This document shows, piece by piece, positions 243 to 3,743 of a DNA stretch of 3,743 nt; within the stretch, counting starts at the first letter, position 1; every line of letters begins with the position of its first letter. The stretch lies in the NCBI GenBank assembly GCA_000004985.1, contig GG739210.1; one strand, written 5' to 3'. The translations under genes were made by a program, and so were the position numbers. The stretch comes from Naegleria gruberi (lineage: Eukaryota). Under the pieces are notes generated by a model. It searched no databases, was not told the origin of the DNA, and saw only the letters and a program-made list of their open reading frames with translations.

Positions 243-693
243 CTGATTGATGGTTTAAATATATAACAACAATGTATAATAATGATGAATAATAACATCT
301 TACAACAACAATAATAACACATTTGATAATATGATGGTAATGATGATCATTTGGTGCTTTTTGGTATTGTTTGGACAATGATCATCCTATTGATGCAATC
401 TACCGATCCGGTATTGATGGTTATCGACTTCTTTCTTGTTGTTTTGCCTTGCTTAACAACAGTATATACCCTGTATCCATCAATCAACAAATCTACTCGG
501 CCATGATGATGGTAACATTGATCCTAACAAGAATAATTCCTCTAGATCCAAGTACATGACTGCTACTGGTGCTATTCAACATCCACAACAACAACAAAAA
601 TCTTTTTGTGTTCTAATGTGATTTTAAAACACAAACATTGGAAAATCCTTTTCAGAAAATCCTGGAGATGGTTGTGAATTTTGTAAACCTATA

Positions 694-809: not shown

Positions 810-1952
810 TTATATTGTTGGTGTAATTTTTACAAAATAGTATTTAACAAAATATTTATTTATAATATTAAAGATATCCAGTCCAAATATTTTGGGCCTG
901 TGAAACAGTGTAATAGGAAAATATTGTTTCATCCATGGATAATAGTGAGTGAGAGGACCGTGTCTTCCCAAAACACCCTTTGGAATACCAGTACTTCCTG
1001 ATGTATAGGTGCAAACAGCAAAGTCATCTTGTGTAATTTTAACATTCAAAGTTGGATCTTCGCTCAAATTGGAATCGTTATAATCAGAGTAGACATTCTC
1101 ATTAAGAATATCAGTCATGGATTTCAATACTGTTACAAACTTGGTATTTTCATTGATAAAATCAATGACAGACTTTGGTAATTGACCAGCAGCTTCAATT
1201 AAAATAACTGCGGATGGTGTTGAAACTTCCAAACAAGTGATAATTCTATCGGCTGGATAAGCAGGATCTAACATGTTGAAAATTGCACCACATTTCAATG
1301 TAGACAAGATGGCCAACACAACTGGACAAGATCTGTGACCAAAGATTGTCACAACCTCCTGTCTCTTCAATCCCTTATGAAGTAAGTGTCTTGATAACTG
1401 ATTGGAAACTCGATTCAATTGTTCAAAGGTAACACTTTCATGATTATCAACCATGGTAATTCTATCTGGTGTTTGTTTAGCTTGTTCTTGGAAAATTTCA
1501 TGAATTGGACCAACGAAATCGTTATTCAAAGCTTTATCAGGGTGTGGTAAAACCTTCTTGGCATATTCAGTCACCAAACTGATATCATAAATAGAGACAT
1601 TGCAATTACTCGACAATACTTGTTCAGAAACTAATTTCAATTGATTCAATAATTCAGCCATTCTCAATTCTGTGAACAAGTTATTTTGATAAATGATACT
1701 GAGTTCGTTAGATTGAGTATTGTAGTGTAAATTTAAATCAACATTCGAAATAGGGAATGGTTTGTCCACCTTAGTGAATGGACCGGCATAGGAACTATAA
1801 GAAACTTGAACGAGTAAATTTGTATCAATATTACCAGCATTAGCATTGTTAGACAAAAATTGTTCGAGAATATTCTTTACATTATTGAAATATGATAAAT
1901 GATTCAATGAATCATTATATGATTGTTGTACATTGTAACAAATTAACTCCAA
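810..1952 (-). pseudogene. LYS2: Lys2-type L-2-aminoadipate reductase gene fragment. The homologous core is ~918..1945 (about residues 85-440 of a ~1390-aa Lys2): Lys2 N-terminal region plus adenylation motifs A1, A2 and A3 only. The 3' stretch 810..917 is a non-homologous AT-rich tail. There is no ATG start (the track M is TTG at 1950-1952) and the first upstream in-frame stop is at 1977-1979.
   Basis: The translation closely matches yeast Lys2 from memory. DFVGPIHEIFQEQAKQTPDRITMVDN matches Sc DFVGCIHDIFQDNAEAFPERTCVVETP. The A1-like VTFEQLNRVSNQLSRHL matches Sc FTYRDINRTSNIVAHYL. The A2-like LKCGAIFNMLDPAYPADR matches Sc LKAGATFSVIDPAYPPAR. AAGQLPKSVIDFINE matches Sc AAGQLDQLVEDYIND. A3 [16 protein letters not shown]...YYPWMKQYF (plus ~918-995) matches Sc [30 protein letters not shown]. 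Immediately after KQYF the frame reads PITLFHRPKIFGLDIFNIINKYFVKYYFVKITPTI*, which has no similarity to the expected ...NLTENDKFTMLSGIAHDPIQRD..., contains CTG codons and is low-complexity. No A4-A10, PCP or reductase-domain motifs appear in any frame of 1..905. I list the ORF as a pseudogene or gene relic rather than an intact CDS. Confidence 0.6.
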
Positions 1953-2483
1953 TAAAACAAAGTTCCAGAACAGATTTTATTTAGTGTTATCTCAAATTTA
2001 TGCAACGAGTATTAAAAAGCTTGAAATATGAACATACACTAACCAATAGGTTCGTATTTATCTTAATGTTTATCGTACATAACAGAACACCGATACAATT
2101 TCTTACCACCAAATGTCAAAGTTACACTATTCCGTCATTAGTACAGGTTTGGGTATATGCTCAAAATATTGTATGTTATTTCGTGTATTATAAGCCAAGA
2201 TATCTAAGATTGTTGATACCGTTTATCAGAAGTGGAAAGCTCCTCTTTATCTACAAACACAGCTCCAAAGTTAATGATAAACTTTACTAGTTAATAGCAT
2301 TCATTTGACATATTCATTACGAAACCGTTGTTAAAAGTCAGCATCTGATGTATCTGTAGTAAGTTGATCTGTACAACCACATGTATATATTTAACATAAT
2401 CGTGTACTAGTATAATGATTATCAATATCCAAGTGTTTGCTTGTTACGATTCTATGATTATCAGTAATATAATATTTACTTAG

Positions 2484-2672
2484 GTATTGCTTGGGTTAGC
2501 TCTTACTTTTCTCCAACCAACTGAATCAGACGAACAAGAAATTAAAGTTTTGACTCCCAGATTCGACTTCAGAACCTGGTTAGCCATTGTAGAGGATGAT
2601 GATTCTAACAATCACATTGATTTCACAACTGCTACCAGTAACTTGTGGCTTTTTTCTCAAGATTCCTTTTAA
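2484..2672 (+). other. Unassigned open frame (62 codons, no ATG; the track start is TTG) encoding an acidic peptide ...TESDEQEIKVLTPRFDFRTWLAIVEDDDSNNHIDFTTATSNLWLFSQDSF*. It could be a terminal exon of an unrecognised plus-strand gene or may be spurious.
   Basis: It opens right after TAG at 2481-2483, which also forms a ...tatttacttAG| acceptor-like context. Its codon choice (ccc, ttc, gac, acc, gcc, gag, ctc) is less A/T3-biased than the two recognisable genes. I recognise no homology. Confidence 0.12.
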
Positions 2673-3084
2673 ATTTTTTACCTTTTAATTACACACCAAC
2701 TTTTTATTGTGTTGCTCTTGTTTGAGTCACCCAAGTCTGCTTGATAATAGAAAGAAGGTTCAATTTCCATCATTCCAACCACTTTTAATTATTTATGGCT
2801 TTAAATGTTAGAATATTTCTTGACTTGAAATTTTTCACTTACCTCTCTCTATCTACGGAAAACAAGCTGTTTCTAACTGATGGTTGCAATTAACAAATTC
2901 ATCAAGAAAAATCATGTCTTAATCAAAAAACAAGCAAAGGATATTATACTTATTTTTCCAATCCATTCTGCATCTCTTATTGGCACTTTGTTTTAAAACC
3001 TAATTAAATTTGATGACGGATTGTTGCTTTGAATTGAAAAAGGAATTATGTTGTGACAAAAGAATAGAAAGTCTCTAACATGTT

Positions 3085-3115
3085 AAAAATATAAATTTAT
3101 ATAAAAATTATATTA
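3085..3115 (-). terminator. Putative 3'-end processing / poly(A) region for the MVP gene: AT-rich block with a TATATA element 60-90 nt downstream of the TAG stop.
   Basis: The minus-strand sequence downstream of the stop is ...ttgtttaatataatttttatataaatttatatttttaaca.... TATATA lies at plus 3098-3103 and is palindromic, flanked by A-rich runs. This is the efficiency-element pattern used in yeast-like 3' ends. The call is by analogy only. Confidence 0.25.
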
Positions 3116-3142
3116 AACAACTTGATTTCTACAACTCATTCC

Positions 3143-3170
3143 TCTTGTTGTTTGTTGGTTGTTGTTTGAT
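3143..3170. repeat. (TTG/TTGT)n = (CAA/ACAA)n simple-sequence tract immediately downstream of the MVP stop. Similar (CAA)n and (AAT/GAT)n tracts occur at 575-598 and 262-350.
   Basis: Plus strand tcttgttgtttgttggttgttgtttg. Plus strand caacatccacaacaacaacaaaaa at 575-598. aataatgatgaataataacatcttacaacaacaataataacac at 262-320. Confidence 0.45.
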
Positions 3171-3176
3171 AATCAT

Positions 3177-3743
3177 CTAATATTGAGTAACATTTAATTT
3201 CAATTGAGTAGATTGTGGTACAATAGTAGCCTTTCTAACATTCTTTGTTGCATTCATTAATTTAACATATTCAATGTATAAATCACCCTTATCACCATCT
3301 AATAATTGCATAGTTTCCTTAATTTGATTCAATTCACTATCATATTTAGCCTTTTTCAATAAAGAAATTGAATCATTTTCAGCCTTTTCTCTTTCAATTT
3401 TAGCTTGACCTTCAATTCTTGATTTTTCAATCTTTTCTTTTTGCATATTTGAATTTTTGATTTGAATTAAATTCTTTTTCAATTTTGCAAATTCAATTTG
3501 AGATTGAATTTCTTCCTTTTCAGCTAAATTCTTTGCATTTTCTTGTAATTTGTTACACATAATATTCATTGATGATTTAATGGATGAATCTAATAATTGT
3601 GCAATTTCCTTATCAACTGGTCTTAATTCTTTAACATCAACTGCATAAACAAAGAAATTAAATTCTCTAAATAATCTACCATGTACTTGAACTGATGTTT
3701 CATCATTAAATTCTACTTTGTAATCTTTAAATAAATTATTTCT
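3177..3743 (-). CDS. MVP: Major vault protein (MVP) homologue, C-terminal part (end of shoulder domain, cap-helix, cap-ring). The 5' end of the gene lies beyond the window edge at 3743. The track ORF 3177..3569 is only the part after an internal Met.
   Basis: The minus-strand frame stays open from 3743 down to a TAG stop (plus 3177-3179) and reads RNNLFKDYKVEFNDETSVQVHGRLFREFNFFVYAVDVKELRPVDKEIAQLLDSSIKSSMNIMCNKLQENAK...EKSRIEGQAKIEREKAENDS...DLYIEYVKLMNATKNVRKATIVPQSTQLKLNVTQY*. From memory of metazoan MVP, FFVYAVDVKELRPVDKEIAQLLDSSIK aligns with ...[26 protein letters not shown] at the shoulder/cap-helix junction. The long K/E/Q/A-rich helix aligns with the cap-helix, and YVKLMNATKNVRKATIVPQSTQLKLNV aligns with the C-terminal ...[25 protein letters not shown]. 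Codon usage is strongly A/T3-biased and there are no in-frame CTG codons. I cannot run a database search. Confidence 0.7.
   Translation of the reverse strand, partial: RNNLFKDYKVEFNDETSVQVHGRLFREFNFFVYAVDVKELRPVDKEIAQLLDSSIKSSMNIMCNKLQENAKNLAEKEEIQSQIEFAKLKKNLIQIKNSNMQKEKIEKSRIEGQAKIEREKAENDSISLLKKAKYDSELNQIKETMQLLDGDKGDLYIEYVKLMNATKNVRKATIVPQSTQLKLNVTQY

Follow-up and report, generated by a model that had tools for sequence, protein, structure and literature searches.

Results

Organization of the scaffold

The DNA analyzed here, referred to throughout as the window, is 3,743 bp long and makes up one small, unplaced scaffold in the assembly of Naegleria gruberi (Heterolobosea, Discoba). Its G+C content is 30%, and it has zero Ns. 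It carries parts of two genes, both on the minus strand. Reading inward from the right edge, the window opens within a major vault protein (MVP) gene that runs past that edge. The part inside the window consists of the last 44 codons of the MVP shoulder domain (3612-3743, minus strand; residues 372-415 of the N. gruberi protein D2V5B9), assigned from Pfam MVP_shoulder and from identity to D2V5B9; a Lys/Glu-rich, cap-helix-like stretch (3342-3611, minus strand) that phmmer placed against PDB MVP chains at approximately rat/human residues 648-748; and the C-terminal tail of a short-form MVP, to residue 559, which has no alignment to solved MVPs (3180-3341, minus strand). The reading-frame call ends in a TAG stop codon (3177-3179, minus strand).

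Downstream of this stop codon lies a spacer of 1.24 kb (1935-3176) in which no protein, tRNA, RNA family or significant repeat was detected, and beyond it, in the same orientation as the MVP gene, a 1,017-bp internal piece of a Lys2 gene (918-1934, minus strand) that corresponds to residues 160-498 of the N. gruberi protein D2UYT1 and was recognized by tblastn, a motif scan, Pfam AMP-binding and TIGR03443. The Lys2 frame then reads through into unrelated sequence (810-917, minus strand) for 35 codons (917-813) before a TAA at 810-812. In the remainder (1-809), tblastn, ORF, RNA and repeat scans detected neither a gene nor a further Lys2 exon. Scans for transposon and RNA features picked up neither an Rfam family nor a tRNA, and any direct or inverted repeats fell short of significance; ten stop-to-stop ORFs outside the two genes, searched as a concatenate, gave no match at E ≤ 1.

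One of the stop-to-stop ORFs (457-618, plus strand, 54 codons) ends in KSFCVLM immediately before its stop codon, a CaaX-like prenylation motif that follows a Gln-rich stretch; a homologue search with this ORF found none, and the motif may be due to chance. Short tandem repeats are present in the presumed 3' UTR or downstream region of the MVP gene, namely TTGTTGT in 3.4 copies (3145-3168) and the 11-mer ATATAAAAATT in 2.7 copies (3089-3117).

The MVP gene fragment

The open frame that enters from the right window edge runs on the minus strand from 3743 to 3180 and comprises 188 codons, all 188 of which encode the same amino acid as the corresponding position in residues 372-559 of D2V5B9 (XP_002680828.1, NAEGRDRAFT_63766), with the stop included. 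D2V5B9 is a protein of 559 aa, carries the UniRef name "Major vault protein", and is encoded on an N. gruberi scaffold of 938,756 bp. Taken by itself, the window piece matched the final 31 profile positions of Pfam MVP_shoulder (PF11978) at E 0.014 and 15.9 bits, below the gathering cut-off of 25 bits because just the last 44 residues of the domain lie inside the window; its top six matches in the PDB were all major vault proteins, at E-values of about 0.05.

A longer version of the same gene segment was available from a metagenome assembly (ENA ERZ929261), in which contig k127_389474 matched positions 3143-3743 of the window at 601 of 601 nucleotides. This 856-bp contig carries the MVP gene 255 bp beyond the window edge, and its extended product of 265 aa proved identical to D2V5B9 residues 295-559 in an exhaustive HMMER search. 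The extended product matched MVP_shoulder over its residues 1-121 (E 8.3e-32, 110.1 bits) and aligned with rat/human MVP residues 524-748 at E 1.6e-19. The identity to D2V5B9 and the metagenome contig thus turn a borderline MVP call into a certain one.

The full-length D2V5B9 scored 117.4 bits against MVP_shoulder (residues 291-415) and exceeded the cut-offs of two vault repeat families, Vault_3 (36.1 bits, cut-off 28.8) and Vault_4 (23.5 bits, cut-off 22.9), while Vault_2 fell just under its cut-off (22.0 bits, cut-off 23.6). In rat MVP the N-terminal array consists of nine vault repeat domains; with 559 aa compared to 861, D2V5B9 therefore has fewer vault repeats than canonical MVP. The shoulder is predicted to lead directly into a long cap-helix, as the alignment continues unbroken through rat/human MVP residues 628-748.

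Several further observations concern the metagenome contig. The 601 nucleotides at 100% identity mean that DNA indistinguishable from that of N. gruberi NEG-M is present within this "metagenome" (run ERR1078381, project PRJEB11402), and a literature search on project PRJEB11402 found no paper. The end of the contig coincides with the TTGTTGT repeat that follows the MVP stop codon. Upstream of the metagenome gene call, sequence ending in aaatatag and continuing as GACTTTATG resembles the 3' end of an intron and stands before the codons for D-F-M (D2V5B9 residues 293-295); from this it looks as if an intron interrupts the MVP gene about 240 bp past the window edge, with the prokaryote-style gene call beginning at an internal Met. 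With regard to method, a word-indexed protein search returned the metagenome fragment alone and missed the 100% identical D2V5B9, which the exhaustive search found, and one negative from a word-indexed protein search should consequently not be read as absence.

Relatives of the N. gruberi MVP

The copy in the window and D2V5B9 represent the same protein, with the same shoulder, cap-helix and tail, and differ in that the window copy is truncated by the edge of its own 3.7-kb scaffold. The nearest named relatives outside Naegleria came from the jakobids Andalucia godoyi and Stygiella incarcerata. These proteins belong to other discobid lineages and are 37-44% identical over the C-terminal 265 aa, and they resemble the N. 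gruberi protein in length (527-552 aa) and in their architecture of shoulder plus Vault_3. Since its closest named relatives are jakobid MVPs, the N. gruberi MVP looks native. The two short MVP paralogues of Andalucia godoyi, ANDGO_00782 and ANDGO_00780, carry locus tags that differ by two and may therefore lie in tandem or nearly so. The rat and human MVPs (PDB 4V60, 4HL8 and 2QZV; 861-893 aa) share a homologous shoulder and cap-helix with the Naegleria protein, which is, however, about 300 residues shorter and has fewer recognizable vault repeats. About 230 proteins in a library of 1.84 billion proteins matched at E ≤ 0.001, many of them 520-560 aa in length and from environmental eukaryotes; as far as these sequences indicate, short MVPs seem to be widespread.

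The Lys2 fragment

A tblastn search of D2UYT1 against the window resulted in a single block, in which residues 160-498 aligned with positions 1934-918 of the minus strand at 336 of 339 identical residues, the three differences being I161V, I300V and K422N. No other Lys2 segment was found in the window by this search. The block keeps its frame intact over all 339 codons and represents 23% of the parent protein. It takes in a portion of the N-terminal extension and then the adenylation domain as far as motif A3 (TSGSTGIPKG), which amounts to the first half of that domain. It matched Pfam AMP-binding over profile positions 1-199 of 384 (E 1.7e-35 for the 810-1952 frame), and its best NCBIfam family was TIGR03443 (L-aminoadipate-semialdehyde dehydrogenase), at 209 bits compared to 106 for the next family and over model positions 153-451.

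D2UYT1 carries all seven motifs that were scanned for (A3, A5, A7, A8, A10, the carrier-domain GGHS with its serine, and the reductase GxTGFLG); in the window copy, A3 is the sole one present. Thus the complete Lys2 architecture of N-terminal extension, adenylation domain, carrier domain and thioester reductase is found in the parent and not in the window copy, which, of the catalytic domains of fungal Lys2, retains half of the adenylation domain. Lacking a start codon, motifs A5-A10, the carrier-domain serine and the reductase domain, the window Lys2 cannot make an active enzyme.

At both ends of the block the similarity to D2UYT1 breaks off, with "KKLLSNIQQ" against "ELICYNVQQ" at one and "MKQYF/GFSENDRF" against "MKQYF/PITLFHRP" at the other, where the slash marks the point of divergence. 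Introns were considered as an explanation for these breaks and rejected, as no GT occurs at or within 12 nt of the 917/918 junction and no exon is found in the 917 bp downstream or the 1.8 kb upstream. A resemblance to the Lys2 N-terminus seen by eye at 2480-2700 on the minus strand ("QVTGSS...", "MANQVLKSNLG..."), which would have stood behind a putative intron of approximately 500 bp, was likewise dismissed; tblastn with D2UYT1 gave no match in this stretch, its best stray matches having E > 0.7, and the resemblance is attributed to chance.

The annotated protein NAEGRDRAFT_54898 (XP_002668209.1, "predicted protein", 283 aa) corresponds to 810-1661 on the minus strand, falls in one 90%-identity cluster with D2UYT1, begins at an internal Met (1659-1661), and owes its last 35 residues, a false C-terminus, to the read-through past the end of the block. 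It is therefore an annotation artefact built on a cut-down gene fragment and no real protein.

The full-length Lys2 gene

D2UYT1 (XP_002683584.1, NAEGRDRAFT_77825) is a protein of 1,469 aa encoded on an N. gruberi scaffold of 1,555,553 bp, with the Pfam domains AMP-binding, AMP-binding_C, PP-binding and NAD_binding_4. Its alignment to TIGR03443 covered model positions 2-1364 of 1390 and scored 997.4 bits, which is 33 bits below the curated cut-off of 1030.1 bits and over double what the next family reached. It shares with the fungal Lys2 of this family the N-terminal extension and the adenylation, carrier and thioester-reductase domains, nearly end to end. From this architecture we infer that D2UYT1 is an alpha-aminoadipate reductase, and, as judged by its predicted protein, N. 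gruberi has a complete Lys2-type gene including the N-terminal extension. The fragment in the window would do nothing, and it is D2UYT1, encoded elsewhere in the genome, that would perform any function in the lysine pathway.

The aminoadipate pathway is known in fungi and in euglenoids (PMC8779187, PMC6630311), and euglenoids, like Naegleria, are placed within the Excavates/Discoba (PMC3762200, PMC7052976). A search of the literature on the aminoadipate pathway in Naegleria itself found nothing specific.

Discussion

A vault protein gene and a Lys2 gene in one discobid genome

The first-pass annotation of this scaffold, made from the letters alone, had called one gene an MVP and the other a fungal-type Lys2 with its N-terminal extension. 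Both calls are borne out by the identities to D2V5B9 and D2UYT1, with TIGR03443 as the best family for the Lys2 block and part of the extension contained in it. The same annotation regarded the two genes together as an unusual taxonomic combination and thought of a CTG-clade yeast or a dictyostelid as the source. The source is instead Naegleria gruberi, whose public proteome has contained both genes since 2010, so that the combination is ordinary for the organism. This is one of the outcomes that the first-pass annotation had itself listed as refuting its reading. Of the two alternatives that had been offered, a lineage that keeps vaults and had or has the aminoadipate pathway or a foreign origin for one of the pair, it is the former that agrees with the finding of both full-length genes in N. 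gruberi. A vault protein beside a Lys2 is no longer puzzling, because the source is a discobid amoeboflagellate that has both genes. The N. gruberi MVP is, moreover, already known, having been treated in two papers of 2012-2013 (PMC3595041, PMC3762200) and in one of 2025 (PMC12547018).

Taken together, our analyses make it very probable that the scaffold consists of the 3' end of a known short MVP gene and a dead internal piece of Lys2, with the full-length genes native and located elsewhere in the genome. The statement that the MVP gene stands next to Lys2 is misleading. The two pieces do lie 1.24 kb apart on one scaffold; the Lys2 piece, however, is truncated, and each full-length gene has a large scaffold of its own (938,756 bp for MVP and 1,555,553 bp for Lys2), judging from the scaffold sizes listed with the two proteins. 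With both full-length genes native and on different scaffolds, the adjacency in the window would carry neither functional nor taxonomic meaning.

Origin of the juxtaposition

For the Lys2 block itself, we give an even chance, or slightly better, to its having arisen very recently in the N. gruberi genome, as a dispersed partial duplicate or as a haplotype-specific insertion. The block has no terminal repeats and no other hallmarks of a transposon. Should the insertion be real, the haplotypes of N. gruberi would differ by kilobase-sized insertions of gene fragments.

Somewhat short of an even chance is an assembly chimera, in which the MVP locus, the Lys2 locus (or its other haplotype) and other places each contributed reads that were mis-joined, the juxtaposition being absent in the cell. 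Consistent with this, the scaffold is tiny and unplaced, one of 1,977 in the N. gruberi NEG-M Sanger assembly (PMC9928731), both of its coding pieces have counterparts on large scaffolds with 99-100% identity, and the Lys2 block, at about 1 kb, has approximately the length of one Sanger read. The independent metagenome contig supports 3143-3743 only and thus neither junction; an exact-protein look-up of the junction-specific ORF of 380 aa found it in no other assembly on record, and JGI metagenomes, scanned for the 917/918 junction and for nearby Lys2 DNA, yielded neither. On the other hand, a chimera would demand that two clean junctions (917/918 and 1934/1935) both be artefacts in a window without Ns, and the three amino-acid differences from D2UYT1 indicate more than a mere repetition of one consensus sequence. 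Gene neighbourhoods on tiny unplaced scaffolds are not to be taken as biology.

A foreign origin for one of the two genes, whether by recent horizontal transfer (for example of Lys2 from a fungus) or through a contaminant contig, appears unlikely. Beyond the Naegleria self-matches, the best matches of the Lys2 block do include a basidiomycete protein as well as metagenome proteins, but at 36-38% identity they are too distant for a recent transfer of Lys2 to be likely; an ancient transfer of Lys2 may have occurred. The first-pass annotation had also pointed to similar codon usage in the two genes, which holds only loosely, as the G+C content at third codon positions (GC3) is 0.28 in the Lys2 piece versus 0.14 in the MVP piece, a difference that could be read in favour of a foreign gene. 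Against such an origin, the presence of full-length copies of both genes on N. gruberi scaffolds of megabase scale speaks against contamination, the MVP has its closest named relatives in jakobids, that is, in other Discoba, and the aminoadipate pathway is known biochemically in euglenoids, which are discobids as well (PMC8779187, PMC6630311).

The overall G+C content of the MVP piece (0.245) is under that of the non-coding flanks (0.29-0.30), a contrast that is probably explained by its cap-helix being rich in Lys, Glu, Asn and Ile.

Far more remote is the reading in which the "MVP" would be a generic member of the SPFH/band-7 group that carries a coiled-coil tail, an outcome that the first-pass annotation had named as one that would refute it. 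It could draw on the score of the window piece, which alone is under the MVP_shoulder threshold, and on one distant relative from the exhaustive search that is labelled HflC/stomatin superfamily by JGI. However, no Band_7 or SPFH family matched the window piece or the 265-aa product at E ≤ 0.1, or D2V5B9 at E ≤ 0.01, whereas the extended product reached 110 bits against MVP_shoulder, D2V5B9 has Vault_3 and Vault_4 above their cut-offs, and the six PDB matches of the extended product at E ≤ 0.01 were MVP chains without exception, aligned over positions 524-748. At the level of sequence the band-7 reading is refuted, and the MVP call stands.

Finally, that MVP and Lys2 form a functionally linked and conserved pair of neighbours in this lineage, as their common orientation and 1.24-kb distance might suggest, can practically be dismissed, given that the Lys2 copy is a dead fragment, that the full-length genes are on different scaffolds, and that we know of no biological link between the two proteins.

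Short MVPs and the vault in Naegleria

The protein to which the MVP fragment belongs has been considered before in the context of vault evolution. D2V5B9 (559 aa) and a second protein, D2W0Z9 (530 aa), were named as N. gruberi MVPs by Daly et al., who found that they model as MVP folds even though they are about 300 residues short and who predicted lateral docking in silico (PMC3595041). With Naegleria among their arguments, Daly et al. further proposed an MVP already present in the ancestor of eukaryotes and lost later by fungi, insects and probably plants (PMC3762200). By homology, the N. gruberi MVP would associate laterally with itself through its shoulder and cap-helix and so may build a vault-like shell. 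To our knowledge, a vault particle has never been observed in Naegleria.

The original annotation had suggested a search for the vault partners TEP1 and vPARP, and published surveys bear on both. The Heterolobosea and Jakobida are reported to have short MVP forms only and no TEP1 (PMC12547018), and the vPARP clade is confined to animals and Amoebozoa, with the N. gruberi PARPs placed elsewhere (PMC2964712).

The value of the present analysis is mainly corrective, in that the combination of a vault protein gene and a Lys2 gene is ordinary for N. gruberi and the annotated protein NAEGRDRAFT_54898 rests on a gene fragment. Two wider questions extend beyond the window. The first is the relation of the Lys2 of the Discoba to that of the fungi, and the second concerns the vault-like shells that the short MVPs of Heterolobosea and Jakobida may form without TEP1 or vPARP.
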